From IMG/VR virus record IMGVR_UViG_3300020048_000009, positions 32,001 through 96,000 of that record: a stretch of 64,000 nucleotides of DNA; one strand, given 5' to 3'. The position numbers and the translations under genes are program-made. The notes below the pieces were generated by a model. That model did not search any database, had not been told where the DNA came from, and was given only the letters and a program-made list of their open reading frames with translations. This document shows, piece after piece, positions 26,505 through 61,081 of this stretch (its first letter is position 1; the number at the start of each line of letters is the position of its first letter). This DNA comes from a virus. Its lineage: Duplodnaviria; Caudoviricetes.

Positions 26505-28145
26505 ATGAGCAATAAGAAGCAGATAGTGTTTGATAAAGATGTACGGGAAAAGATACTGAAGGGTATTACTATCCTGGCAAAGAGTGTGGGTTCTACGTTA
26601 GGACCGTCAGGTAAGTGTGTGGCTATCCAGAATCAGTACGGATCACATACGATCACCAAGGACGGCGTGACAGTGGCTAAATCGATCAGCGTCGAGGATC
26701 CGTTTGAGGATCTAGGGATTCAGCTTATTAAAGAGGTGGCGTCTCAGACTGCGAATGTGGCAGGTGACGGTACGACTACTGCGACCATCCTGGTTGAAGC
26801 GATCTATAAGGAAGGACTCAAGTATCTTACTGCGGAGTATGATGCGCAGCAGCTTAAGCGTGAGATTGACGCAGCGGTTACATTTGTTCTAGGGAAAGTT
26901 AAAGAGCAGTCGCAGCCAGTGACGACATCAGCGGCGATTGAACAGGTGGCTACTATCTCTGCGAACGGTGACAAGGAGATCGGTAAGATGCTGGCTGAGG
27001 CCTTTGAGAAGGTAGGCCCTGATGGAATGGTAACAGTAGAACCTGGCGACAAGGCGGAGACCTATTTGAACCTGGTGACAGGTATGCAGTTCAACCGTGG
27101 TTATACATCGCCTTATTTCGTGACCGACGTGGACAGTATGACCTGTACCTATGAGCGTGCGGCAGTGTTGCTGTACGATAAGAAGATCTCTAATGTTAAT
27201 GAAATCCTGCCAGTGCTGCAGTACGCGGCCAAGCAGAAGGTGCCGCTCATCCTTATTGCAGAGGATATAGAGGGTGAAGCATTAAGTACACTGGTCGTGA
27301 ATCGCATACGCGGCAACATTGCAGTGTGCGGCATCAAGGCACCGGAGTACGGACAGCAGCGCAAATATGCTTTAGAAGATCTAGCAAAACTATTAGGCTG
27401 CAAGGTGATCAGTGAGGATACCGGGCAGAAGCTGGAGAACGTCACTGATGCTATGTATTTAGGTGTCGCTGACAAAATCATTGTTACCCGGGACAGTACG
27501 ACTATTATTAAGAAAACCCCAGAAGAAGGCTTCCAGGAATATGTTGCAGCGCTGCGTGAACAGGTTAAGCATGCGACGTCAGACTATGAAGTCATGAAGC
27601 TGCAGGGAAGAATCGCTAAACTGGTTGGCGGCATCGGTGTTATTAAAGTAGGCGCAGTAACAGAGGCTGCCATGAAGGAGAAGAAGGACCGGGTAGACGA
27701 CGCGTTCCATGCGACTAAAGCTGCTATCCAGGAAGGTGTTGTACCTGGCGGCGGTATAGCGTTGTTAAACATAGTCCACATGATTTCTACGGAGTTCGGA
27801 ACAGGTGGACGTATAGTTCAGAAGGCTATCGCTGCACCTATCCAGAAGATGCTGTCGAATGCAGGATTGGACCCAGCTATCTATATCAACCGTCTAGAAG
27901 TATTACAGGACGCTGCACAGGCTAACGGTACCTGGAACGTTGAAGGCTATAACATCCTTACCCGTACGTATGTTGATATGTTCGCTGCAGGCATTGTTGA
28001 TCCTGCTAAGGTTACCAGAACAGCGCTGGAGAACGCGGCAAGCATCGCAGGCTTGTTACTTACTACAGACTGTATGATAGTTGATATGCCCGACGACAGG
28101 CCTCAGTTGGTGATGCCAAATATGGGCGGCGGCGGAATGATGTAA
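26505..28145 (+). CDS. groEL: chaperonin GroEL
   Basis: TLGPSG, ITKDGVTVAK, AGDGTTTAT, GMQFNRGY.SPYF, VVPGGG, GGGGMM tail. Confidence 0.98.
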   Translation: MSNKKQIVFDKDVREKILKGITILAKSVGSTLGPSGKCVAIQNQYGSHTITKDGVTVAKSISVEDPFEDLGIQLIKEVASQTANVAGDGTTTATILVEAIYKEGLKYLTAEYDAQQLKREIDAAVTFVLGKVKEQSQPVTTSAAIEQVATISANGDKEIGKMLAEAFEKVGPDGMVTVEPGDKAETYLNLVTGMQFNRGYTSPYFVTDVDSMTCTYERAAVLLYDKKISNVNEILPVLQYAAKQKVPLILIAEDIEGEALSTLVVNRIRGNIAVCGIKAPEYGQQRKYALEDLAKLLGCKVISEDTGQKLENVTDAMYLGVADKIIVTRDSTTIIKKTPEEGFQEYVAALREQVKHATSDYEVMKLQGRIAKLVGGIGVIKVGAVTEAAMKEKKDRVDDAFHATKAAIQEGVVPGGGIALLNIVHMISTEFGTGGRIVQKAIAAPIQKMLSNAGLDPAIYINRLEVLQDAAQANGTWNVEGYNILTRTYVDMFAAGIVDPAKVTRTALENAASIAGLLLTTDCMIVDMPDDRPQLVMPNMGGGGMM

Positions 28146-29925: not shown

Positions 29926-30047
29926 CAGAGATAGATTGAGGGAACTAGTGTTAATGGTTAGCACAAGGGCCTTTGTCCCTTAGAGCGGTTCGAATCCGTA
30001 CCCTTAGAACAGATCTTAAGCTATAGCTTAACAGGTGAAATCCTCTG
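29926..30047 (+). ncRNA. three-way-junction RNA copy 1 with tRNA-derived insert
   Basis: CAGAG-AT-AGATT ... GAAC ... GTGAA-AT-C-CTCTG; D-, anticodon- and T-arm-like segments inside. Confidence 0.6.
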
Positions 30048-30190
30048 TATCTTACCTTGATTCGGGACATGTTAAAGTGTCCCGTTTCTTTTATTTAGTG
30101 TTAAGGTTCTAGGAATTTGTACACCGGATAAAAGAAAAACCTGATAACTATTAATTATCAGGTTTCATTGTAACGTATCTTGTTGAGATA

Positions 30191-31723
30191 TTACTCACCA
30201 GGAGCGACAGGCGTACCAAAGTCTTTAGCTGTAGGGGGTAGTTTAGGTTGAGCATTCGCTTCTCTATCCCATTGAGCCTTCATTGATTTAGCACCGGTCT
30301 CAGACATATCTTCCCAATACCAATAACGTGTTTCAGGTTTCATCTTTGACTTGTAATCAAACATTTTACCAGACTTAGTTGTAGGTTGAATTTTGAAGTT
30401 GATGTTTGTGATGTATTTGATTTGGTCATCAGGCGATAACATTTCAAACTCTGCAACAGCAATCGGCTTACCTTGAGCGATCTTGATCTCTAATGTCTTA
30501 GCACCAGTATTAGGAATAGAAGCTTGGCTTGTAGATTGTATACCTGTTTGAAGGTTCGCTGTGCGTCTGGCTGAATCATTATCAGTTAACCAACCTTTAG
30601 CACCGACTCTATCTGTAGGAAGAACATCTGGACCTGCTTCACCCAACTTCTGATATTTCTTATCGGCGGCTTTTATTTGATTTATACCTTTAGTGATATC
30701 ATCTGGAGTGATTTTATTTTTTATTTTATTATACATCTCCATTATTTTGTCTTTGCCGCCCATATTATACCAGTCAGTAATACTGTCTAAACTATAATAA
30801 GTAGCCAATGCTGCCACAATTTGTACTGAGACACTTGCTAAAACCCCTGCGAGTGCTCCAGCTAAAATGGCGCTTTCTTTCACTGGTTCCTTCTTGAGTT
30901 CACGTTTTGATTTATATTCGTTAACAAACGTACAGAATTCTTTGATATCCTTCTTCATCCAGTAGCTGATATCTTTTTCTTTACCAGTTAATTTATGACG
31001 AATCTCTTTCACGAATTTGTCACAGCAAGCTTTGTCAGCAGCAGTTTTACATTTCTTATCTTTGAATACTGCAATGGTCGTAACAGGTTTCTTTTCTGCT
31101 TCTTCCATTTCTTTAGAAAGATCATATGTTTTATAAGATTCTTCTATAGCGTTACCAGTATAAGGATCTTCATTACTTAGGTCAGGAGCATCCTCGATAT
31201 TCTCGAAACAGTCTGTAATGAATTCTGCGATCGCTGTAACCTCATCAATGCCGAATTCCTCGCAGCAGTCATCATCTTCTGCGCCGCAAGTAACTAAAAC
31301 AACATTCTCCTTAATCAGTTCTATTTCTGCCTTCTGTGTAATAGGATCGCCTGCTTTAATTACTTCTAGGATATTCTCATCTTCATTGAATTCAATTGAA
31401 TAATCAAACATGCCTTCTAATTTAGCTCTAAGGTCTGTACACCAACAAATGTCATCTGAATCAATATCTCCTATATCGTTTTCAACAATTTCATCGTCGC
31501 CAATATCATCTGTTGAAATAATAGGTTCAGCTTTGACGCTGCTAGTAGTCGCCATTCCATCTTCTTTAATGACTTTACCTGTAGGCGCTGCTTTAGTTAC
31601 TTTAGGTTTTGAAACAGCAAATACCGGTTTCCCGGCATTTGGTTTCTGGTTGCAGCATGCTTTACTTTCAGAAATAACCTGTAAGTAAGCATCTGTTATT
31701 TTATCTTCATGCTTTATATACAT
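30191..31723 (-). CDS. acidic late protein, possibly head core/internal
   Basis: many (I/V)xE sites; D/E-rich. Confidence 0.75.
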   Translation of the reverse strand: MYIKHEDKITDAYLQVISESKACCNQKPNAGKPVFAVSKPKVTKAAPTGKVIKEDGMATTSSVKAEPIISTDDIGDDEIVENDIGDIDSDDICWCTDLRAKLEGMFDYSIEFNEDENILEVIKAGDPITQKAEIELIKENVVLVTCGAEDDDCCEEFGIDEVTAIAEFITDCFENIEDAPDLSNEDPYTGNAIEESYKTYDLSKEMEEAEKKPVTTIAVFKDKKCKTAADKACCDKFVKEIRHKLTGKEKDISYWMKKDIKEFCTFVNEYKSKRELKKEPVKESAILAGALAGVLASVSVQIVAALATYYSLDSITDWYNMGGKDKIMEMYNKIKNKITPDDITKGINQIKAADKKYQKLGEAGPDVLPTDRVGAKGWLTDNDSARRTANLQTGIQSTSQASIPNTGAKTLEIKIAQGKPIAVAEFEMLSPDDQIKYITNINFKIQPTTKSGKMFDYKSKMKPETRYWYWEDMSETGAKSMKAQWDREANAQPKLPPTAKDFGTPVAPGE

Positions 31724-51393: not shown

Positions 51394-51470
51394 GAGCTCG
51401 TAGAGGAAATGGTTAACTCATGTGGTTTTCATCCACAAGATTGCCGGTTCGAATCCGGTCGGGCTTACCA
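51394..51470 (+). tRNA. tRNA-Glu(TTC)
   Basis: cloverleaf, loop TTTTCAT, CCA. Confidence 0.9.
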
Positions 51471-51561
51471 TATAAGCATGACGACTAGACTAGCAATGCT
51501 TTCAGCTTATAGCTAAACTAGTGACACGGCGGAGAGCACGTCGGACAATTTTATAATTTAT

Positions 51562-51647
51562 GGATAGGTGCTCCTGAATGGTAAGGGGACGGTCTTGAAA
51601 ACCGTAGGCTAACCCCACTGCACGTTCGATTCGTGTCCTATCCTCCA
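51562..51647 (+). tRNA. tRNA-Ser(TGA)
   Basis: loop CTTGAAA, long V-arm, CCA. Confidence 0.88.
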
Positions 51648-51694
51648 ATTTGTGGCGCGTCACGGTGTGTGTATAAGTCGCTTCGATTTATTAT

Positions 51695-51772
51695 GGGGCC
51701 ATAACTCAGTCCGGCTAGAGTGTCTCCCTTGCACGGAGAAAGTCGGGGGTTCAAATCCCTCTGGCTCCACCA
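51695..51772 (+). tRNA. tRNA-Ala(TGC)
   Basis: G3-U70, loop CTTGCAC. Confidence 0.92.
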
Positions 51773-51876
51773 ATTTGGCTGCATTCCGGATGCAGTCGGA
51801 TCAATTCACCTGATGTACTAGAGCGAGTCAGGAATTATGAAACAGTAAAATTCTGTATCGGTCTGCCAATTTATGT

Positions 51877-51952
51877 AGAACGTTCGCGTAGTGGTTAGCG
51901 CACTAGACTGTCGATCTGGATTTCACGGGTTCGATTCCCGTACGTTCTGCCA
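51877..51952 (+). tRNA. tRNA-Asp(GTC)
   Basis: loop CTGTCGA, G73. Confidence 0.9.
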
Positions 51953-51962
51953 TTTTAATTTA

Positions 51963-52039
51963 CGGAGTGTGGAGGCAATTGGCTGCCCACGTGCCTTGGA
52001 CGCATGGTTATGTCGGATCGTTCCCGACCACTCCGACCA
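51963..52039 (+). tRNA. tRNA-Pro(TGG)
   Basis: loop CTTGGAC; atypical T-loop. Confidence 0.85.
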
Positions 52040-52052
52040 ATTTTTCTAGAAA

Positions 52053-52127
52053 GCCAACTTGACTGAATGGTTAAGTACCTCATTTGTAATGAGACCCATA
52101 ACGGTTCGATCCCGTTAGTTGGCTCCA
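52053..52127 (+). tRNA. tRNA-Thr(TGT)
   Basis: loop TTTGTAA. Confidence 0.88.
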
Positions 52128-52220
52128 TATTTTATATACGAAAGTAATATATTCTAAAACCGGTACTTTCTTTTCAAATATGTATACCGGCTTTAATAAA
52201 TAAAATTAAAGGAATATATT

Positions 52221-52946
52221 ATGAATACAGTAATTTGTCCAATATGTGGAAAAGAATACAAACAATTAATAGCACAACATATTTTTAAACACGGTTTGAC
52301 TATTGAAGAATTTAAACTTAAATTTCCAGATTTTTATTTAGGTAGTCCGGGTATTGAAAGTACTAGAAAAGAAAAAATGGTACTTCAATATGAAAAAGAT
52401 AATATACGATGTAAACATTGTAATAAATTAATAACATCACCAAATAGAAAACATAGAATCTTTTGTAGTACTTTATGTAAAGCTACTTATTATTCTTTTA
52501 ACAAAGAGCTTGTTCAAACAAAAGGAAAACATTTTAAAAAAATCTGTTGTGCATGTAATAAAGAATATAAAGCCTTTAGAGATAATTCTAAATTTTGTTC
52601 TAATAAATGTCAACAAGAATATATTAATGTTCAAAAAATTAAAGAATGGAAAGACGCCACAGAACAGGGAAAACCTTTTCCCTATAGAAAATGGATAAGA
52701 CATTATCTTTTTAAAAAATATGATAACAAATGCTGTAAATGTGGGTGGAGTAAGATTAATCCTTTTACAGGAAATGTTCCTTTAGAACTTGAACATATTG
52801 ATGGTAATTCAAATAACAATAAAGAAGAAAATTTAGAATTGTTATGTCCCTGTTGTCATGCCTTAACTTCCACATATAAGGGTGCAAATAGAGGTAATGG
52901 AAGATTCTCTAGAAGACAAAGATACCAAGAAGGTAAATCTTATTAA
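52221..52946 (+). CDS. HNH homing endonuclease with Cys-rich N-terminus
   Basis: CCKCGW...LELEHIDGN..NN..ENL.LLCPCCH. Confidence 0.9.
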   Translation: MNTVICPICGKEYKQLIAQHIFKHGLTIEEFKLKFPDFYLGSPGIESTRKEKMVLQYEKDNIRCKHCNKLITSPNRKHRIFCSTLCKATYYSFNKELVQTKGKHFKKICCACNKEYKAFRDNSKFCSNKCQQEYINVQKIKEWKDATEQGKPFPYRKWIRHYLFKKYDNKCCKCGWSKINPFTGNVPLELEHIDGNSNNNKEENLELLCPCCHALTSTYKGANRGNGRFSRRQRYQEGKSY

Positions 52947-52957
52947 TAAAATTTAAT

Positions 52958-53031
52958 GCGTCTGTAGCTCAATGGTCGAGCCCGTCCTTGCCAAGGATGT
53001 TATACGAGTTCAATTCTCGTCAGATGCTCCA
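52958..53031 (+). tRNA. tRNA-Gly(GCC)
   Basis: loop TTGCCAA. Confidence 0.88.
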
Positions 53032-53041
53032 ATTTAAAATG

Positions 53042-53113
53042 TTTAATATGAGCTAATGGTAAGCTTCCAGGTTTAAAGACCCAGAGTATATAGGTTCAAC
53101 TCCTATTATTAGA
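53042..53113 (+). pseudogene. degenerate tRNA-like sequence
   Basis: D- and T-arm present, broken anticodon arm, no CCA. Confidence 0.45.
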
Positions 53114-53120
53114 TATTTAT

Positions 53121-53194
53121 GCGTTTGTAACTCAATTGGCAGAGTGCTGGGCTTCCAACCCGGATATACGGGATCATACCCCGTCAGATGCTCC
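53121..53194 (+). tRNA. tRNA-Gly(TCC)
   Basis: loop CTTCCAA. Confidence 0.88.
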
Positions 53195-53200
53195 ATTTAA

Positions 53201-53275
53201 AGCGATGTTAGCAAAATGGTTATGCGGCGGTCTGCAAAACCGCTTACATGTGTTCAATTCACATACATTGCTCCA
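53201..53275 (+). tRNA. tRNA-Cys(GCA)
   Basis: loop CTGCAAA, U73. Confidence 0.9.
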
Positions 53276-53285
53276 TTTTATTTAT

Positions 53286-53361
53286 GCTCTCTTATTTCAG
53301 TGGCTAGAATGCTTCCTTTACACGGAAGAGGTCAGGAGTTCGAATCTCTTAGGGAGTACCA
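53286..53361 (+). tRNA. tRNA-Val(TAC)
   Basis: loop TTTACAC. Confidence 0.9.
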
Positions 53362-53367
53362 TTTTTT

Positions 53368-53444
53368 CGAAGTATAACTCAGTTGGTTAGAGTACCTGTC
53401 TGATACACAGAATGTCGGTGGTTCGAATCCATCTACTTCGACCA
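53368..53444 (+). tRNA. tRNA-Ile(GAT)
   Basis: loop CTGATAC. Confidence 0.9.
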
Positions 53445-53451
53445 TTTTATT

Positions 53452-53535
53452 GGGACTGTGGCGTAATGGCAGACGCGCTGGTTTTAGACACCAGTGGAGA
53501 AATCCGTGAAGGTTCAAGTCCTTTCAGTCCCACCA
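53452..53535 (+). tRNA. tRNA-Leu(TAG)
   Basis: loop TTTAGAC, long V-arm. Confidence 0.92.
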
Positions 53536-53646
53536 GTTTTGTTTCATTAAAGCATATAATATCAGTGTATAAAAGCCAATGAATATACTACTATATTAAT
53601 ATCAATTACGCAATTGATACTGTTCTTTGAATAACAATTTTTAAAT

Positions 53647-53735
53647 CGCAGGGTGGCGTAATTGGCAGCCGCAGCGGACTTAAAATCCGCTGGGTGGTAA
53701 CACCCGTGAGGGTTCGAGTCCCTCCCTTGCGACCA
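53647..53735 (+). tRNA. tRNA-Leu(TAA)
   Basis: loop CTTAAAA, long V-arm. Confidence 0.92.
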
Positions 53736-53769
53736 TTGATCCTTAGTTAGAAGATTGTGTTCTGTCAGC

Positions 53770-53869
53770 CCATCAAGATAGACGTTTGAGATCATGCCTC
53801 TTCTGGAACAAGTATATAAACTTTAAGCCTTTGAGCGGACAGGTTTATATTAAGTGAAATCCTTGATGG
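53770..53869 (+). ncRNA. three-way-junction RNA copy 2
   Basis: CCATCAAG-AT-AGACG ... GAAC ... GTGAA-AT-C-CTTGATGG. Confidence 0.6.
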
Positions 53870-53994
53870 TCGGCGGTGTATTCCAGTCTTTTGTTTTAGT
53901 ATGATATTAATGTTTTCGTTACCTGACCGTTGGACTAAGTGCACTTCGTAAGAAGGCTCCAATCAATCAGCTTCTCCATTAACCAGCAGCATAT

Positions 53995-54071
53995 AGGCGT
54001 GTAGCTCAGCTGGTTAGAGCGGGATCCTTATAAGGTCTAGGTCGCTGGTTCAACTCCAGCCACGCCTACCA
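53995..54071 (+). tRNA. tRNA-Ile(TAT)
   Basis: loop CTTATAA. Confidence 0.88.
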
Positions 54072-54088
54072 TTTTTTAGAAAGTAATT

Positions 54089-54238
54089 ATGCTTTATTAT
54101 TGGACAAGAGTTTATAATACAGGTGCTGCCCATTATTGGGAAGTAGAAAGTGAAGAAGCTTTACTTATCGCTGCAAAAGAAAAGTATGGTGAATCACTTT
54201 TTGATTATGGAATGACAACTCAAAAGAAAACAAAGTAA
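54089..54238 (+). CDS. small hypothetical protein (49 aa, not in ORF track)
   Basis: MLYYWTRVY...; fills gap between tRNAs. Confidence 0.5.
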   Translation: MLYYWTRVYNTGAAHYWEVESEEALLIAAKEKYGESLFDYGMTTQKKTK

Positions 54239-54250
54239 ACAATTTTTAAT

Positions 54251-54332
54251 GGGAATGTATCTCCCCCGCCTTCTAAGCGGACGTTAAAAGAGTAATTGGA
54301 GTATGCAGGTTCGATCCCTGTCTTTCCCGCCA
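54251..54332 (+). tRNA. atypical tRNA-Arg(TCT)-like RNA without canonical D-arm
   Basis: acceptor stem, CCGC-CTTCTAA-GCGG, T-arm, GCCA. Confidence 0.6.
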
Positions 54333-54417
54333 TTTTAGCTAAGAGTAGTAAATATTTAATTTACTTATATATTTAAGCTGCGCTTTTAATAAATAAAATT
54401 AAGGGTATAACTTAAAT

Positions 54418-54924
54418 ATGAAAAATAAATGTCATAAATGTAATGTAGATATTCCAAACAGGGTTAAAATAGATAACTGTTGGAAAACAATTAACCATAG
54501 AAAATTTTGTTTAATCTGTTCACCGTGGGGTAAACATAATACTAAAAGCGTGGATCCTTCTAAAAGAACGCTTTCAGAAAAAGAAAGACATTCCTGGAAA
54601 AATTTAACAGATAAACAAAAAACATGTCATAAAACATCACAACATAAGAGAGCCGTTAAGCGTAAGGTTGAACTTATTAATATGCGAGGTGGGAAGTGTG
54701 AAAGATGTGGTTATGATAAATGTATTGATGTATTTCATTTTCATCATATAGATCCATCGTTAAAAACCATGAACATGGGATTAAATTCTCTATGGTGTAA
54801 ATCATGGGAAAAGATTTTACAGGAATTTGAAAATTGTAAAGTATATTGTTCTAATTGCCACATGGAAGTGCATTATGAATTAAAAAATCCTGATAATAAA
54901 CAATGTACTTTAATTTCAAAATAA
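54418..54924 (+). CDS. HNH endonuclease
   Basis: GGKCERCGYDKC..VFHFHH.DP...C.VYCSNCH.E.H. Confidence 0.88.
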   Translation: MKNKCHKCNVDIPNRVKIDNCWKTINHRKFCLICSPWGKHNTKSVDPSKRTLSEKERHSWKNLTDKQKTCHKTSQHKRAVKRKVELINMRGGKCERCGYDKCIDVFHFHHIDPSLKTMNMGLNSLWCKSWEKILQEFENCKVYCSNCHMEVHYELKNPDNKQCTLISK

Positions 54925-55029
54925 TATGATTAGCCAGTGTATAAAAAGAAGAGATTATCATATTATATATCTATCAAGTATGTACTTGAGCATGTTCTTT
55001 GACAATTAATAGCAAATGATTTTTTTAAT

Positions 55030-55114
55030 GGAAGCGTGGCCGAACGGCTAGGCATCGGACTTTTAATCCGAGGGAGAAATCCTAACGCAGGTTCGACCCC
55101 TGTCGCTTCTACCA
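55030..55114 (+). tRNA. tRNA with Lys(TTT) anticodon on a long-variable-arm body
   Basis: loop CTTTTAA; V-arm GGGAGAAATCCT. Confidence 0.8.
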
Positions 55115-55132
55115 TCTTTTTAGTTTTCAAAT

Positions 55133-55206
55133 TGTCCCATAGTGTAATGGCAGCACAGCACCCTTTGACGGTGTTTGTATTGGTTCAAGTCCAGTTGGGA
55201 CAACCA
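55133..55206 (+). tRNA. tRNA-Gln(TTG)
   Basis: loop CTTTGAC. Confidence 0.9.
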
Positions 55207-55208
55207 AT

Positions 55209-55282
55209 ATTCCCATGTTGTAAAGGATGCATGCGGCGCTACGAACGCTTCGGTTGGAGTTCGAATCTCTATGGGAATACCA
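55209..55282 (+). tRNA. tRNA-Arg(ACG)
   Basis: loop CTACGAA. Confidence 0.85.
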
Positions 55283-55287
55283 TTTTA

Positions 55288-55346
55288 AAGACGCAAACAG
55301 CAATTCAAATAAAAATTCACTGTTAATGAAAAAAAAAACGCGTCTT
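55288..55346 (+). ncRNA. small pseudoknot-like RNA with an Asn-anticodon-like segment
   Basis: AAGACGC/GCGTCTT stem; ACAG/CTGT; CTGTTAA. Confidence 0.45.
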
Positions 55347-55354
55347 GTTTTTAT

Positions 55355-55429
55355 AGTAGAGTAGGCAAGTGGTAATCCGCCTCCCTGTTAAGGAGGACAG
55401 CGCTGGTTCGATCCCAGCCTCTACTGCCA
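55355..55429 (+). tRNA. tRNA-Asn(GTT)
   Basis: loop CTGTTAA, G73. Confidence 0.88.
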
Positions 55430-55433
55430 CTTT

Positions 55434-55558
55434 GGGAACAGATGGTTAGCGCCATTTGGCATATTTATTCATGTAGTATGCCTAACCCATTTATATTTTT
55501 GATAAATAAAATAGAGGTTACGCTAAGAACCTCTTTAAAATAAAGGTAAAATAATATG
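55434..55558 (+). ncRNA. kissing-loop endonuclease-leader cassette copy B
   Basis: H1 loop TTAGCG (55446-51) complementary to H3 loop CGCTAA (55521-26). Confidence 0.75.
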
Positions 55559-56236
55559 ATTAATAAATTAGATGAATCATGGAAGCAAGTAAACGGTTTA
55601 TATAAATGTCCAATATGTAGTAAAGAGTATTCTAAAAAAGGAATTTGTTCGCATATCTTTAGATCACATACAAAAGACGGTAAATATAATTCTTTTAAAG
55701 ATAATAACAGATTATATACTTCATCGTGGAATAAAGGTTTAATAAAAGAAACAGATCTTAGAATCAAGAAATCTGGTGAGAAACTTAAAGAAAGTCTTAA
55801 CTCTGGTAAAGTAATACCACCACAAACAGGAAAACCTATTGCTCCTGAAATAAAAGCTAAAATATCCAATACGATGAAGATTGCTCATAAAGAAGGAAGA
55901 GCGTGGAATATTGGAAAGTCTAGATGGAATAACAAAGCTTCATATCCAGAAGAATTCTTTATGAAGGTTATTGAAAATGAATTTGAGGATAAGAATTATA
56001 TAAGAGAATTTAATGTTGGTATTTATTCTATAGATTTTGCATGGACCGATAAAAAGTTAGCTATAGAAATAGACGGACAACAGCATAAACGATTTGAAGA
56101 ATATAAACAGAGAGATCTTCGGAAAGATGAATGTTTATTAGAGAATGGATGGAAAGTTCTAAGAATTTTATGGATTGATATGTATAAGGATCCACACAAG
56201 TGGATTAAAATTGCTAAAGATTTTATACATAATTAA
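55556..56236 (+). CDS. free-standing endonuclease (zinc finger, NUMOD3, DUF559-like)
   Basis: CPIC..H...H; K.KISNTMK; YSIDFAW..KLAIEIDG.QH...D..L..NGWKVLRI. Confidence 0.88.
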   Translation: MINKLDESWKQVNGLYKCPICSKEYSKKGICSHIFRSHTKDGKYNSFKDNNRLYTSSWNKGLIKETDLRIKKSGEKLKESLNSGKVIPPQTGKPIAPEIKAKISNTMKIAHKEGRAWNIGKSRWNNKASYPEEFFMKVIENEFEDKNYIREFNVGIYSIDFAWTDKKLAIEIDGQQHKRFEEYKQRDLRKDECLLENGWKVLRILWIDMYKDPHKWIKIAKDFIHN

Positions 56237-56249
56237 GAATTTTATTAAT

Positions 56250-56325
56250 GCGATTGTAGCTCAGTAGGCAGAGCGTCGGACTCTTAATCCGAAGCGCGTG
56301 GGATCATAGCCCTCCAGTCGTACCA
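56250..56325 (+). tRNA. tRNA-Lys(CTT)
   Basis: loop CTCTTAA. Confidence 0.85.
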
Positions 56326-56363
56326 TTTTGATGTACAAGATCAGATAGACATGAGAATTTTAT

Positions 56364-56437
56364 TGCGCGGTTGAGGAGAGGCCCCTCTGCAGGCTCATAA
56401 CCTGCCTACGCCGGTTCGAATCCGGCCTGCGCAACCA
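56364..56437 (+). tRNA. tRNA-Met/Ile2(CAT)
   Basis: loop CTCATAA. Confidence 0.85.
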
Positions 56438-56446
56438 ATTTAACAA

Positions 56447-56597
56447 CACGGCGTGAGGAAAGAACTTGTTCTATGATTCTTAATTCGATTCTAGTAAGAT
56501 AGTACTGTCTGAACGAGGATGTTATTAAGCGGAGAACAGAAATCCTACCGGAAACATGTCCGGAAATCGCAGGTATCGAATCCTGTCGCCGTAACCA
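56447..56597 (+). ncRNA. tRNA-fMet-like RNA with about 80-nt D-loop insertion
   Basis: C1:A72 acceptor, AGGA/TCCT D-stem, CCGGA-AACATG-TCCGG, T-arm, ACCA. Confidence 0.6.
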
Positions 56598-56603
56598 ATT
56601 TTA

Positions 56604-56679
56604 GGAGTTTTGTTGTAGATGGTTCGCAAAACGGTCTGAAAAACCGAAGGATAGGGTTCGATCCCCTGAAACTCCACCA
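56604..56679 (+). tRNA. tRNA-Phe(GAA)
   Basis: loop CTGAAAA. Confidence 0.88.
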
Positions 56680-56690
56680 TTTTATTTTCT

Positions 56691-56778
56691 GGTAGTTTAT
56701 TCCGTAGGTAGTCTCGGGGCGCACTGTAAATGCGCTGGCTAATACCCTAAGGTAGTGCAACTCTATCAACTACCACCA
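56691..56778 (+). tRNA. tRNA-Tyr(GTA)
   Basis: loop CTGTAAA, long V-arm. Confidence 0.82.
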
Positions 56779-56789
56779 GCTTTAAATAA

Positions 56790-56923
56790 GGACAGATGGT
56801 TAGCGCCATTTGGATGTTTTTCATATGACACGCCTAACTTATTTAATTATTTTTTCATATTTTTTGATAAATAAAATAGAGGTTACGCTAAGAACCTCTT
56901 AAAAATAAAGGTAAAATAATATG
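56790..56923 (+). ncRNA. kissing-loop endonuclease-leader cassette copy C
   Basis: TTAGCG (56800-05) / CGCTAA (56886-91). Confidence 0.75.
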
Positions 56924-57457
56924 AGTAAAAAATTAATTGATCGCATCGGTGCTGATAAAATCATTGAAGTCTGCAAATCTGCAAAAACATTTAAAGAAGC
57001 ATGTGAAAAACTTAACTGTGGTTATAGATATTTAATGACAGCAGCCGTTGAATTAAATGTTTTCGATGAGTTAAAGTCTAGATCTAAAGAATTTGCACAT
57101 AAATTTAAAAAGGCTGATGGTTCAAGATTATGGTTGATTAAAACTAATACGGGACAAGGCTTTACATCATACAGAACTGATACTAAAATTTGGTGTGAAG
57201 AACTTTTTAAAGGAAATCATACATCAACCGCTGTTAGAATTAAAACACATTTAATTAATGCTGGGTATAAAGAAGATCATTGTGAATGCTGTGGTATTAA
57301 TGAATGGAACAATAAGCCAATAAGTTTACAATTACATCATATAGATGGAAATTCTAGAAACAATCAGTTAGATAATTTAAAAATTCTTTGTCCTAATTGT
57401 CACGTTCAAACAGATAATTATGGTTCTAAGAATGCTCGAAATAAAGAGCGCGAGTAA
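56921..57457 (+). CDS. HNH endonuclease with N-terminal HTH-like region
   Basis: CECCGI.EWN.KPI.LQLHHIDGN..NN.LDNL.ILCPNCH. Confidence 0.92.
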   Translation: MSKKLIDRIGADKIIEVCKSAKTFKEACEKLNCGYRYLMTAAVELNVFDELKSRSKEFAHKFKKADGSRLWLIKTNTGQGFTSYRTDTKIWCEELFKGNHTSTAVRIKTHLINAGYKEDHCECCGINEWNNKPISLQLHHIDGNSRNNQLDNLKILCPNCHVQTDNYGSKNARNKERE

Positions 57458-57473
57458 AGATTCCACCATTTTA

Positions 57474-57545
57474 GGGCAGCATGAAGGTACAAGCTCTACC
57501 TATAACTTAGGTACCTGGTGAGTTCAATTCTCATCCTGTCCACCA
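57474..57545 (+). pseudogene. tRNA-like, anticodon unassignable
   Basis: acceptor, T-arm and CCA present; D-arm reduced. Confidence 0.45.
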
Positions 57546-57551
57546 TTTTAT

Positions 57552-57628
57552 GTAGCAGTAATTCAAGAGATAGAAATGCTGGGGTAATTCCTGGCGTGTT
57601 GTTGGTAAAAATCCAGCCTGCTACACCA
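57552..57628 (+). pseudogene. tRNA-like with 6-nt anticodon loop
   Basis: GTAGCAG/CTGCTAC acceptor, ACCA; loop GTAATT. Confidence 0.5.
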
Positions 57629-57694
57629 CTTTCAGTTGTAATTCAAGCCATGTCCGATAGGGTACTTCTATATGAGCGCGCCCTATTTGTAAAG

Positions 57695-57787
57695 AATGAG
57701 ATAGACGAGAGTCGGCCGTAAGAGAATCCTCTGCAGGGGTTCAAAGACTAAAGACTCAGGAGGAACGTGTTACGTGAAATCCTCATT
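57695..57787 (+). ncRNA. three-way-junction RNA copy 3
   Basis: AATGAG-AT-AGACG ... GAAC ... GTGAA-AT-C-CTCATT. Confidence 0.6.
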
Positions 57788-57825
57788 GACAAAGATCCCT
57801 AATGAACGGGAATGATAGTAAGTTA

Positions 57826-57947
57826 GTAAGAGAGATATTTGTGATTATGCCTTTAGTGTAACGGTTAGCACGTGGGATAATTCCCTTAGATCGGTTCGAC
57901 TCCGCAGGAAAAAACAAATCACATACAGAACCTTGTGAAATCCTTAT
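57826..57947 (+). ncRNA. three-way-junction RNA copy 4 with tRNA-derived insert
   Basis: GTAAG-AG-AGATA ... GAAC ... GTGAA-AT-C-CTTAT. Confidence 0.55.
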
Positions 57948-58074
57948 ATGGTACCTATCCAACTGAGCCATTCCAAGAATCCCCAGAGACGGTGTAGTAG
58001 GGATATACGAAGCAACACATTCATAGGCCTATCGGTGTTGTTGTAGATAGGACAAGACCGTTTCATTTTTATAC

Positions 58075-58201
58075 TGAGTAATGTAGAGAATTGGCAAATC
58101 AGCGGGCCAGTAGGCAAGTCTTAGAGATGCTGAAATCCGGCGGAATAACATTAGCTGGTAAGAGGTTATTCATTTATGGGTTCGAGTCCCATCATTATTC
58201 A
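58075..58201 (+). ncRNA. tRNA-like RNA with expanded anticodon arm, no CCA
   Basis: TGAGTAATG/CATTATTCA, D-loop AATTGGCAA, T-arm ATGGG-TTCGAGT-CCCAT. Confidence 0.55.
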
Positions 58202-58237
58202 GTGTATTTCTTTTTAAATTTAGTTATAATATAATTT

Positions 58238-58546
58238 ATGAAAACCAACAAATTTGTTTTTGAAATCAGTGTTGAAGGCCCAGGTTATAATGAAGAAAAT
58301 GTAGAAGAACTTTATGGTGAAGGTGCCATGTATAATCCAGATTTTTCAGAACACTCTGTAGTCATGGATGAGGTCTATGAAATCTTTAAGGATGCATTAA
58401 TGCAGCGAATGGAATTTAAAATGAATGCATTAATTAAACCTGTTCCAAATGAAGCAGCACAAAAAGCTTATCTAACTCATGTTGATGCAGCAATTGAGCT
58501 TTATAGAAAAGTTCAAGGAAGTTTAAAATTCGTTAGAAAAGAATAA
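58238..58546 (+). CDS. hypothetical protein
   Basis: ORF behind early promoter. Confidence 0.7.
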   Translation: MKTNKFVFEISVEGPGYNEENVEELYGEGAMYNPDFSEHSVVMDEVYEIFKDALMQRMEFKMNALIKPVPNEAAQKAYLTHVDAAIELYRKVQGSLKFVRKE

Positions 58547-58552
58547 TTTATG

Positions 58553-58684
58553 GGGGTTGTTGGCTGAATAGGCATAAGCAGGGCACAAGAGGCCTGACAA
58601 AGCATAAAGGCATGTAGAAAACCGGCCGGGAATATTCTATATGTACTGTGCAGCGTGGAGGTTCGATTCCTTCCAGCCCCACCA
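58553..58684 (+). ncRNA. tRNA-like RNA with about 60-nt insertion in the anticodon arm
   Basis: GGGGTTG/CAGCCCC-ACCA, D-arm, T-arm, GCACA/TGTGC. Confidence 0.6.
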
Positions 58685-58690
58685 ATTTAT

Positions 58691-58765
58691 ATAGCAGTAG
58701 TTCAATTGGCAGAATGGCGATCTCCAAAAGCGATGAAGTGGGTTCGATTCCTGCACATCCTGCCA
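58691..58765 (+). pseudogene. degenerate tRNA-Trp(CCA)
   Basis: loop CTCCAAA but unpaired acceptor stem and weak anticodon stem. Confidence 0.55.
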
Positions 58766-58770
58766 TTTAT

Positions 58771-58849
58771 GGTAGTATTAGCTTAGTCTGGCCTAAAGCT
58801 ACGGACCGTGACTCCGTGATCGTGGGTTCGAATCCCATATACTTCCCCA
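58771..58849 (+). tRNA. tRNA-His(GTG)
   Basis: G-1:C73, loop CCGTGAC. Confidence 0.88.
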
Positions 58850-58858
58850 AAATTAATT

Positions 58859-58919
58859 CATAATTCGATCCCACTATTTGATAAATAAAATAAATATCAA
58901 ATAGTGGGATCGAATTATG
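58859..58919 (+). promoter_or_regulatory. 25-bp perfect hairpin sequestering the start codon, with the late promoter at its apex
   Basis: CATAATTCGATCCCACTATTTGATA / TATCAAATAGTGGGATCGAATTATG. Confidence 0.85.
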
Positions 58920-59858
58920 AATACTTTATTAATAAGACATTGTGAAAATTGTGGAATAGAACATGATGGAACATATGGATCTGGAAGATTTTGTTCTAAA
59001 GAATGCGCTAGAAGTTTTTCTTCTAAATTAAATACAAACATACGAAATGAAAAAATTTCAAAAACATTAAAAAATAAACATATTAGAGAAACTATATGTA
59101 AAAAATGTGGAACTATTGTATATACAAAGGGTTCTAGTCCAAATGTATGTTGTGACAAATGTAGACAAAAAAGAAAAAGCAATACCCCCTATTGTAATAG
59201 ATGTGGTGCCGAACGTGGAAAATGTAAATATCCATCTTTATGTAAAAAAAAGTTAAAATTATTTGATGGATTAGAAAAATATTTTGGATTTGATAAAACA
59301 AGTTTTGGGTCGAAAAGATATTATGAAGAAATCTTTAGAATAAAAGCAATGATAGAAGAAGATTATTATGAAAATAATAACTCAACAGTTGAATTATGTA
59401 AAAAATATAATCATACAGCATGTGGTAGTTTTATAAGAATACTAAAAAGCATTGATATTGTATTAAGAAATTTAAAAGAATCTTCATTACTGGCATATAA
59501 AACTGGTAGATCTGTTATATCAATAGATAATAGTACTCAATATAAACATGGGTGGCATACTGCATGGGATAACACACAAATATTTTATAGATCTTCATAT
59601 GAACTTGATTATGCTGAAAAATTAGATGAGCAAAAAGTAAAATATGACGTCGAAGCTTTAAGAATATCTTATTTTGATACTCAAAAATGTATAGAAAGAA
59701 CGGCAATTCCTGATTTTTATCTTCCTGAAACTAATACTATAGTTGAAATAAAATCTTCATGGACATATAATGAACAGAATATGAATGATAAAATTAAAGC
59801 TTATAAGAAGCATGGTTATAATTTTAAACTAATTTTAGATCATAAGGAAGTTGTTTAA
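58917..59858 (+). CDS. free-standing TnsA-like PD-(D/E)xK endonuclease with zinc ribbons
   Basis: CENCG..HDGTYGSGRFCS; YRSSYEL..A..LD; IPDFYL..IVEIKS. Confidence 0.85.
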   Translation: MNTLLIRHCENCGIEHDGTYGSGRFCSKECARSFSSKLNTNIRNEKISKTLKNKHIRETICKKCGTIVYTKGSSPNVCCDKCRQKRKSNTPYCNRCGAERGKCKYPSLCKKKLKLFDGLEKYFGFDKTSFGSKRYYEEIFRIKAMIEEDYYENNNSTVELCKKYNHTACGSFIRILKSIDIVLRNLKESSLLAYKTGRSVISIDNSTQYKHGWHTAWDNTQIFYRSSYELDYAEKLDEQKVKYDVEALRISYFDTQKCIERTAIPDFYLPETNTIVEIKSSWTYNEQNMNDKIKAYKKHGYNFKLILDHKEVV

Positions 59859-59927
59859 AAAATTTATTTTTTTGCGTATAATTATAGTATACAAATAAAT
59901 TGTAATACAAATAAGGAAAACAATATT

Positions 59928-60068
59928 ATGTTAAAGAGAGATAAGCTCGGTAGATTCGTTGCTGCTAAGAAAGCACCTAAGGCTAAGCCCTGTGCACCAT
60001 GTAAACCTTCCAAGAAGGATTCATGTAAACCTTGCGCACCTAAGAAAACAAAGAAATGTTGTAAGTAA
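59928..60068 (+). CDS. 46-aa Lys/Pro/Cys-rich KRDxxGRF-family peptide (not in ORF track)
   Basis: MLKRDKLGRFVAAKKAPKAKPCAPCKP...; AAGGA RBS. Confidence 0.6.
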   Translation: MLKRDKLGRFVAAKKAPKAKPCAPCKPSKKDSCKPCAPKKTKKCCK

Positions 60069-60331
60069 TTTTCAACGTTTAGATAAATAAAAATATCAAA
60101 CCTGCGGTGCCTCTATTCGGGTGGATTTATTCCTTCGTACTGAATATGCATAATTCCGCGGGTATTTTATTTCAGGTGTACTTTTTAAATAAATCCGTGT
60201 ATTATATAATCATAACAAGTTAAATGGAGATGAGACAATGGATATTCCTTTTGCAGAATTAATGATTAAAGCTGGAGAATTGAACAAAGATACTTTCGTA
60301 ATCGATGTTGATACTCTTAGGAGATGGTTAG

Positions 60332-60547
60332 ATGAACAAAATCAAAAAGAATCAAACACAATGTAATTGTGAATCCCAATGTAATTGGGAAGTTCAAGGA
60401 ATGTCTCCTTCTCCCATACAGAATAAAACAATTGTTTTTAGAATGTCATGTGATGGTAAATACTTTACGACAACTACAAATGAAGTATCAACCCTCACCA
60501 TCTGCCCTCACTGTAATCAACCCATAACTCACCTAAACAAGGTTTAA
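60332..60547 (+). CDS. small Cys-rich protein
   Basis: CPHC motif. Confidence 0.5.
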   Translation: MNKIKKNQTQCNCESQCNWEVQGMSPSPIQNKTIVFRMSCDGKYFTTTTNEVSTLTICPHCNQPITHLNKV

Positions 60548-60551
60548 CATT

Positions 60552-60983
60552 ATGCGTACACAAATAGAAGGTATAAAATACGAGATGCCTGATGGCTATT
60601 ATCGCGTGACTAATAAGCTCGATATGGCCAGACGTGATGATTTAGTTTGGGGATCTTGTGAAGACCTATGGTCTAAACCTACAGGAAGACTTGATCTTGT
60701 TGGTAATTATTATGCGGTTATCCGTAAAGGTGTGAAACCTCCAAAAGTAATTAAAGAGAATTCTAAACCACCAGCTTATATAAAAGTTACTTCAGTTGAT
60801 GATATCAAAAAATATAATCTTAAAGAAGGTTCTAAGATTATTATAAACGATTTGAAATATACAATCGTTAAAATCCATTCAGCTGGTAATTATGGTTGGG
60901 GATTGTTAAGCCAACAATTTGCTATTTGTCTTATCACATCAAAACTTGAGCTTTTAATAAGCGCTTATACTCTTGGTATATAA
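60552..60983 (+). CDS. hypothetical protein
   Basis: AAGG RBS. Confidence 0.6.
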   Translation: MRTQIEGIKYEMPDGYYRVTNKLDMARRDDLVWGSCEDLWSKPTGRLDLVGNYYAVIRKGVKPPKVIKENSKPPAYIKVTSVDDIKKYNLKEGSKIIINDLKYTIVKIHSAGNYGWGLLSQQFAICLITSKLELLISAYTLGI

Positions 60984-60989
60984 TTTAAT

Positions 60990-61081
60990 GGAAGTGTGGC
61001 CGAGCCTGGTTTATGGCGGCTGATTACTAATCAGCAGGGGCCTTAAAACCCCCGTAGGTTCAAATCCTATCGCTTCCTCCA
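60990..61081 (+). tRNA. tRNA-Ser(ACT)
   Basis: GCTGA-TTACTAA-TCAGC, long V-arm, CCA. Confidence 0.85.

Follow-up and report, generated by a model that had tools for sequence, protein, structure and literature searches.

The tRNA arrays of phages are commonly interpreted as aids to codon usage or as spares against defences, and the RNAs other than tRNAs within them have hardly been explored. In phage T4, species 1 and 2 (rnaC and rnaD) are small, partly tRNA-like RNAs inside the tRNA cluster, stable and of unknown function. Theta ribozymes, which resemble the hepatitis delta virus (HDV) ribozyme, lie next to phage tRNAs and are thought to act on the tRNA-array transcripts (PMC10879173), and the bacterial Y RNAs YrlA and Yrn1 carry the Rsr-binding motif GNCGAAN(0-1)G near the 5′ end, the tRNA-like domain of YrlA following the order T-arm, acceptor-like hairpin, D-arm (Chen et al., 2014, PMC4201824). 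Double T-loop modules, whose signature is AGNNA...UGNNA, are likewise tied to tRNA biology (PMC3664808), and about 10,000 unnamed viral RNA candidates have been reported (Fremin et al., 2023, PMC10690425). Here, we describe an RNA element that occurs four times in a stretch of 64,000 nucleotides of phage DNA (the window), namely bases 32001-96000 of the 211,678-bp IMG/VR virus record IMGVR_UViG_3300020048_000009 (Caudoviricetes), which stems from an aquatic metagenome and is judged 84% complete. The element consists of a nearly invariant frame of about 35 bases around exchangeable inserts, and the four copies are members of a widespread family of small structured phage RNAs, spread over many unrelated uncultured phages.

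The four copies in the window

The motifs common to the four copies are AG-A(U/G)-AGAY, GAAC and GUGAAAUCCU, enclosed by a closing helix, P1, of 5-8 bp, the sequence of which is different each time and always paired. P2 is the helix that follows AGAY, and P3 is the stretch between GAAC and the 3′ word. The parts of each copy are as follows.

29926-30047, + strand: copy 1; P1 CAGAG/CTCTG (29926-29930 / 30043-30047)
29931-30042, + strand: inner parts of copy 1; AUAGAU 29931-29936, insert 29937-30006, GAAC 30007-30010, P3 hairpin 30011-30034, GUGAAAUC 30035-30042
53770-53869, + strand: copy 2; P1 CCATCAAG/CTTGATGG (53770-53777 / 53862-53869); covariance model score 52.6 bits
53778-53809, + strand: inner parts of copy 2; AU 53778-53779, AGAC 53780-53783, short irregular P2 to 53805, GAAC 53806-53809
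53810-53861, + strand: 3′ part of copy 2; long P3 hairpin 53810-53853, GUGAAAUC 53854-53861
57695-57787, + strand: copy 3; P1 AATGAG/CTCATT (57695-57700 / 57782-57787); covariance model score 43.2 bits
57701-57766, + strand: inner parts of copy 3; AU 57701-57702, AGAC 57703-57706, non-tRNA hairpin insert to 57762, GAAC 57763-57766
57767-57781, + strand: 3′ part of copy 3; 7-nt linker or weak 4-bp hairpin 57767-57773, GUGAAAUC 57774-57781
57826-57947, + strand: copy 4; P1 GTAAG/CTTAT (57826-57830 / 57943-57947), with one G-U pair
57831-57927, + strand: inner parts of copy 4; AG 57831-57832 in place of AU (the 5′ pentad is AGAGA), AGAU 57833-57836, insert 57837-57927
57928-57942, + strand: 3′ part of copy 4; GAAC 57928-57931, 3-nt linker, GUGAAAUC 57935-57942

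The original prediction, made from the letters of the window, had placed four copies with these shared words at these positions, and they are present as described; its statement that P1 changes from copy to copy and still pairs was confirmed in all four, with the single G-U pair in copy 4. The 5′ boundaries of copy 1 were read directly from the sequence. The 10-mer GTGAAATCCT occurs four times in the window, always on the + strand, versus 0.12 occurrences expected by chance, and 0 of 100 shuffles reached four; AGAKAGAY lies 73-104 nt upstream of every occurrence, and GAAC also precedes each. A structure-aware scan of the whole 211.7-kb genome returned exactly four copies.

Copies 1 and 4 bear tRNA-like domains in standard order, and copies 2 and 3 bear plain hairpins. 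The insert of copy 1 runs through an acceptor-like stem, a D-arm, a 5-bp stem with the 7-nt loop CCUUUGU and a T-arm, and it scores 21.1 bits over the full length of the Rfam tRNA model (E 0.03), a score that does not reach the cut-off of 29 bits. In copy 4, a 7-bp stalk (UGUGAUU/AAUCACA) bears a tRNA-like domain with a 4-nt "anticodon" loop, and no match to the tRNA family (RF00005) was returned for this copy in the Rfam scan at E up to 10. Both inserts have in common the D- and T-arm sequence of the phage tRNA-Gln/Glu, which agrees with the tRNA-like character proposed for them from the start; ARAGORN called no tRNA at copy 1 or copy 4. P3 measures 3 nt in copy 4; copy 3 has a weak 4-bp hairpin there, and copies 1 and 2 have long hairpins.

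An apparent fifth copy at about 58033-58145 was rejected, being out of register with the frame. Just past copy 4, at 58071-58204 on the + strand, lies a separate tRNA-like element, which is closed by a 13-bp stem and has a D-arm-like segment and a canonical T-arm (AUGGGUUCGAGUCCCAU), its anticodon arm being replaced by an insertion of 70 nt; the element has a fold z-score of -2.7 and scores 23.5 bits (E 0.009) on the Rfam tRNA model, under the cut-off. Within the insertion, the two frame words adjoin each other (AGAGAU-GC-UGAAAUCC), and no helix closes them.

Scanned at gathering thresholds, the whole window matched only tRNAs in Rfam, and the four copies together with a short relative (L089) matched no family in Rfam 15 at E up to 10, in agreement with the predicted lack of a known family. 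The weak outputs were a sub-threshold tRNA on copy 1, noise (STnc350, tsr31) and a marginal leuA-Halobacteria hit on L089. No published description of the frame was found by its motif words or themes, the unnamed candidates of PMC10690425 being outside this comparison.

Conservation, inserts and distribution of the family

The frame is a conserved, covarying and strand-specific RNA fold with modular inserts; nearly all members reside in phage tRNA arrays, and the frame is conserved on its own. A covariance model (R1) built from 15 members recovered 51 sequences, of which 46 were distinct, and P1 statistics were taken on these. P1 was paired at 94.8% in the 46 distinct sequences, versus 70% in column shuffles and 33-50% when the partner strand was slid, and its covariation score was 0.623 versus 0.136, with both sides changing in five pairs. 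G-U pairs occur as well, an indication of pairing at the RNA rather than the DNA level. In the consensus, a free helix is followed inward by a G-C pair, a bulged C and then an A-U and a U-A pair; next come AGA, the Y-R pair with which P2 begins, GAAY, the free linker and finally GUGAA. No variation occurs in the 46 sequences at G-C, A-U and U-A, the three innermost pairs. The Y of AGAY covaries with the base preceding GAAY (C-G in 41 and U-A in 14 of 73), and P2 therefore opens directly at the junction. With P1 and the Y-R pair both covarying, the check on homologues that had been suggested with the original prediction came out in its favour.

Between GAAY and GUGAA, about half of the members have a stretch of just 3-8 nt, so that P3 is an optional insert; in the others it is a hairpin, which is not closed by the flanking AC/GU and the loop of which is often of the CGACGG type. 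P1, P2 and a long conserved 3′ strand describe the core better than a fixed three-way junction does, and of the junction that had been predicted, P1 and P2 stood, whereas the short stem as a constant helix did not. A mismatch search with the core words in the carrier loci found 44 perfect instances and 1 with one mismatch, and 14 with two mismatches versus 5 in the reversed-sequence control. Paralogues that share neither P1 nor insert keep perfect core words. Natural frames of 41-43 nt, essentially free of any insert (L095:4547-4589 and L069:7778-7818 are natural minimal frames), also have a perfect core; therefore, the frame, and not its cargo, is the unit under selection. The earlier view of an unrecognised conserved scaffold with exchangeable cargo is thus borne out by inserts that vary, a core that is kept and the lack of an Rfam match.

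The inserts, for which P2 and the stretch between GAAY and GUGAA are the sites, are of several kinds: none at all, plain hairpins, T-arm minihelices, T-arms with a recurring YUGGUGA segment, and whole tRNA-like domains in normal or permuted order. About a third of them contain a T-arm-like hairpin, two are called as tRNAs by ARAGORN, and the "anticodon" loops of those read are 4, 5, 6 or 7 nt long, without U33. In the permuted order, the T-arm is followed by a perfect 7-bp acceptor hairpin, U-R and the D-arm, with P2 in place of the anticodon stem; at least 4-6 such domains occur (L004, L092, L178, L123, L155, L070), none of them among the four window copies. Two permuted inserts (L092:4677-4790 and L178:2134-2253) encode the discriminator and CCA (ACCA), followed by a 3-nt linker before G1, and this ACCA at the acceptor 3′ end is like that of permuted tmRNA genes.

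Tandem frames can abut, with 0-1 nt between them. Frames often occur in tandem pairs 0-13 nt apart (L092:4545-4790, L178:2134-2375, L004:734-994, L155:11787-12082 and L070:383-581); in the pairs of L004 and L178, one frame has a tRNA-like insert in standard order and its partner a permuted one, and in the L070 pair the upstream frame has a plain hairpin.

Exact words were used to scan 2.9 million viral contigs, and the same words plus GAAC were used for a control scan of one genome from each of 185,579 prokaryote species. The viral scan gave 212 loci, which is about the chance number for the words alone. P1 was longer by at least 3 pairs in 59 of 215 viral matches, versus about 11 expected; these include 42 distinct sequences and come from GC-rich and AT-rich contigs alike. 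The prokaryote control gave 72 matches, about 45 of which are the antisense of one conserved coding gene, and P1 was extended in only 2. With P1 extension thus distributed between viral and cellular matches, the element is essentially viral. In complete jumbo-phage genomes, the 9-base 3′ word GTGAAATCC has 2-11 occurrences, mostly clustered, versus 0-3 for the reversed-word control. Among cultured phages, a BLAST search of the window region and three relatives against 50,697 records gave no match.

On the fetched stretches, ARAGORN found a tRNA for 65 of 78 instances, at most 1 kb away for 57, and every tRNA within 2 kb of a frame is on the frame's own strand. Frames are spaced much as tRNAs are: the next tRNA mostly follows after 10-25 nt, and ordinary spacers between tRNAs have a median of 16 nt. 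Exceptions to this setting are copy 1 of the window and a complete 45.6-kb phage without any tRNA gene, in which the frame lies in a replication operon, between a Sak4-like gene and small open reading frames (ORFs).

Possible functions of the frame

Based on these findings, we tentatively propose that the frame may be an autonomous docking or recognition module on small phage RNAs, presenting optional cargo in a manner that is Y-RNA-like without the RNAs being Y RNAs. The small structured RNAs would be co-transcribed with the tRNAs of the array or as the last element of an operon; from tRNA-array precursors they would be freed, presumably by the same machinery as the tRNAs. The frame could then serve as a specific docking site for a widely available partner, with a host tRNA-handling factor or tRNA itself as candidates, and would tether or present the variable cargo, by analogy with Y RNAs, which join a Ro-binding stem to a tRNA-like head.

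No RNA run was found with the window phage. In an abundant relative (L009), the tRNA array and the frame are covered by contigs of river and freshwater metatranscriptome libraries from several studies, which weakly favour transcription of the frame. In one L009-related contig form, both frame ends match and the interior differs; frame ends kept around a changed interior in these relatives are insert swapping in the wild.

Several observations weigh against a docking module. The RNA-library contigs span the frame boundaries and could originate from DNA or a precursor, the RNA ends not being displayed in them. An all-against-all ORF comparison of 45 carrier loci found no recurrent neighbour protein family, the largest cluster covering 11 of the 45, window included. 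TROVE/Ro60 (PF05731) has 0 matches in the 211.7-kb genome, and L7Ae (PF01248) has no match there at E up to 1; among the carriers, 1 of 30 records has a TROVE gene (1 of 8 when only those with a completeness of at least 90% are counted), and a CCA-adding enzyme is encoded in 6 of 31 records and 2 of 8 complete ones. Each of the three is missing from most carrier genomes, complete ones included, and all were rejected as general partners. Furthermore, the members were collected by exact words, so their invariance is partly ascertainment and only the extra copies in the same loci are unbiased, and copies 1 and 4, with their large inserts, escaped model R1, in which P1 and the adjoining words alone are represented. 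Finally, about 20 nt of near-invariant core combined with arbitrary stems likewise characterise small self-cleaving ribozymes.

Among known motifs, leuA-Halobacteria (RF03001) resembles the frame in its closing helix, GAUAGA on the 5′ side, GAA(G/C), an inserted covarying hairpin and N-GAAAU(U/C)C on the 3′ side, but it is archaeal, lies upstream of leuA, has a fixed length of 53 nt without a P2 insert, and leaves the base before GAAAU free. On this model, which has a cut-off of 47.9 bits, L089 reaches 9.7 bits (E 7.3), and none of the weak matches in the genome is a window copy. A common structural module may exist in archaeal leaders and phage small RNAs. The function of RF03001 is unknown; its loci in Halobacteria genomes (L428-L443) occupy positions 1501-1553 of each. 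A simple k-turn was rejected: AGA/GAA could form tandem sheared G-A pairs, but the "bulge" strand is at least 9 nt (GAAY-N3+-GU), whereas a k-turn has a 3-nt bulge. A possible likeness of GUGAAAUCC and GGAAC to helix 21 of E. coli 16S rRNA was set aside as well.

The core signature named above gives substance to an alternative that we consider unlikely but serious: the frame would be a small ribozyme of a new class, self-cleaving or cleaving-and-ligating, that cuts tRNA-array and operon transcripts, the inserts being passengers. Besides about 20 near-invariant core nucleotides, the frame has free helices, tolerated insertions, minimal forms of 41-43 nt and several copies per genome; it lies between protein genes in the tRNA-free 45.6-kb phage, tandem frames 0-1 nt apart would therefore need an exact cut there, and an invariant bulged C adjoins the core. 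GA-[P3]-GAA followed by an A-U pair resembles the flanks of hammerhead stems II and III, and in type III hammerheads, as in the frame, one helix is preceded by GA and followed by GAA, the terminal helix begins with an A-U pair, after which an A is unpaired, the core is small and invariant and the stems are free; both occur in phages. The hammerhead-like GAAA, A15.1-U16.1 and unpaired H17 also have counterparts in the frame (GUGAA-A pairs with the U of AU, then A), as a resemblance only. However, the frame lacks CUGANGA (C3, U4, G5, A6), which is essential for hammerhead catalysis, and has AGA and GAAY instead; the strand before P3 is only GA, the bases before that vary, no Rfam hammerhead model matched, and hammerhead identity was rejected. 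Nor did any other Rfam ribozyme family match, even at E up to 10; the RNA-library contigs run uninterrupted across the relative's frame and both its borders, and the systematic tRNA-like inserts would be left unexplained. The theta ribozymes, although likewise small structured elements inside phage tRNA clusters, have a nested double pseudoknot that the frame lacks, and share no sequence or model similarity with it; identity with T4 rnaC/rnaD was rejected, no frame words being present in the T4 sequences. Of similar odds, and therefore also unlikely, is a more specific form of the docking idea, put forward as a hypothesis and not as a classification, in which the frame would be the fourth natural and first free-standing double T-loop module gripping the tRNA elbow, so that the RNAs dock onto tRNAs or tRNA-like inserts. 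Both purine-rich pentads, A-N-N-N-A and U-G-N-N-A, have likenesses in the frame: UGAAA is invariant and preceded by G, G-UGAAA also being found in E. coli rnpB, in a stretch that we take to lie at J11/12, and A-N-A-G-A is invariant, copy 4 having AGAGA, the T-box AG-box sequence. Such a module would explain the frozen AU/AU "pairs" and the bulged C beside covarying P1 pairs, and the genomic setting is the tRNA array. The two pentads flank the free-length helix P2, which can be likened to P12 of RNase P, lying between two T-loops. Against it, the first pentad is AUAGA in 81 of 82 instances, with AGAGA only in copy 4, so that position 2 is U and not the G of AGNNA in about 98%, and one of six defining residues fails; the G variant is near chance in the viral scans (about 3-5 credible cases versus about 60). 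The base before G-UGAAA, which should contribute to a purine platform, is variable (T in 12, A in 16, C in 21 and G in 6 cases), and the other platform residue is Watson-Crick paired in P1. The extra invariant GAAY has no counterpart in known modules, which sit inside a large RNA or a leader whereas the frame is free-standing, and in leuA-Halobacteria the U of UGAAA is not conserved and AU/AU lies in a continuous helix.

It is improbable that the frame is instead the structured leader and trailer of genuine odd or permuted tRNA genes, discarded at maturation, with the insert as product. Some inserts are indeed near real tRNAs (the two ARAGORN calls, and copy 1 by its bit score), the permuted ones have perfect 7-bp acceptor stems, two with ACCA and the 3-nt linker, and the window phage encodes a CCA-adding enzyme; yet about two thirds of the frames have no T-arm and some no insert at all, "anticodon" loops of 4-7 nt without U33 are not what such a product calls for, the conserved part would be the one discarded, and a phage without tRNAs has the frame. 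Divergent Y RNAs that bind the Ro60/Rsr protein are more improbable still and largely refuted. YrlA and Yrn1 (RF02553) are like the frame in joining a closing stem with a conserved recognition element to a tRNA-like head, either permuted or with an anticodon-like arm and a short loop (PMC4201824), and both occur in phages; the permuted order is found in a minority of frame relatives, and in one carrier phage the tRNA array is adjoined by a TROVE gene. Their recognition element is GNCGAA, though, where the frame has AUAGA, GAAY and GUGAAAUC; the motif GNCGAAN(0-1)G is not in the four copies, the 5′ word of which is AG-AU-AGAY, no RF02553 match was obtained, most carriers have no Ro60/TROVE gene, the window genome included, and many frames have no tRNA-like head. 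In the tRNA array of phage Felix O1, GTGAAATC was not found, and the handle there differs from the frame. Therefore, of the Y-RNA likeness originally suggested, the modular resemblance stands, with YrlA-style permuted heads in relatives, and the actual link does not; a decoy for tRNA-targeting defences, also suggested originally, is a conjecture. The TROVE carrier itself is a 224-kb phage (G015; L282:17277-17486, L282/L283) with a TROVE/Ro60-like ORF of 567 aa directly upstream of a 20-tRNA array, which holds one frame about 10 kb beyond the TROVE gene. Least probable of all is a repeat acting as DNA, for instance in recombination or as the target of a homing endonuclease; the array does contain HNH endonuclease genes between its tRNAs, but P1 changes in sequence with pairing kept and uses G-U pairs, the orientation is strictly that of the tRNA strand, and the inserts fold like RNA.

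Genomic surroundings and significance

The further features of the window that bear on the setting of the copies are listed below.

51394-61081, + strand: tRNA array with 24 tRNA genes and interspersed HNH homing-endonuclease genes; copies 2-4 are embedded on the same strand
30062-30092, + strand: terminator-like hairpin GGGACA...UGUCCC followed by a U-run, 15 nt past copy 1
69-1361, + strand: tRNA nucleotidyltransferase (CCA-adding enzyme), PHROG E 1.5e-108
26505-28145, + strand: GroEL-like chaperonin, E 2.7e-150

A DNA polymerase is also encoded by the phage. Copy 1 lies 21 kb from the tRNA array, at the end of a + strand transcription unit that is faced by a convergent gene (30191-31723, - strand), and copy 2 starts 35 nt past tRNA-Leu(taa). 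Within the array, ARAGORN reports the unusual anticodons tRNA-Phe(AAA), tRNA-Ser(ACU) and tRNA-Ile(UAU), the listed sites being 53041-53115, 60990-61081 and 53995-54071; a normal Phe(GAA) is present besides tRNA-Phe(AAA), at 56604, and the Rfam tRNA model gives the Phe(AAA) gene a score of only 38.7 bits. Additionally, two different hairpin sequences occur in two copies each (55439-55458/56793-56812 on the + strand and 55513-55534/56878-56899 on the - strand), in the same order and just upstream of the HNH-type ORFs 55556-56236 and 56921-57457; they have the look of a cassette border that was duplicated, or of a pair of terminators shared by the endonuclease insertions.

In conclusion, the frames belong with modular tRNA-mimic phage small RNAs, and there is a real chance that they are categorically new, as a ribozyme or as a free-standing elbow dock, a new self-cleaving class being equally novel. 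What is new here is a compact and extremely conserved RNA module that Rfam lacks and of which a jumbo-phage genome has 2 to about 10 copies; its heads can be swapped, permuted tRNA mimics with encoded CCA being among them, and a natural form of 41-43 nt offers a clean experimental handle. If the double T-loop hypothesis is true, the small RNAs of large phages would dock onto tRNAs or onto the tRNA-like heads of one another, possibly for organising the processing of the tRNA array or for shielding or sequestering tRNAs during infection. On any of the readings, a new element would be gained for the biology of tRNA and of RNA between phage and host, and the frame might also give a small RNA-display scaffold.

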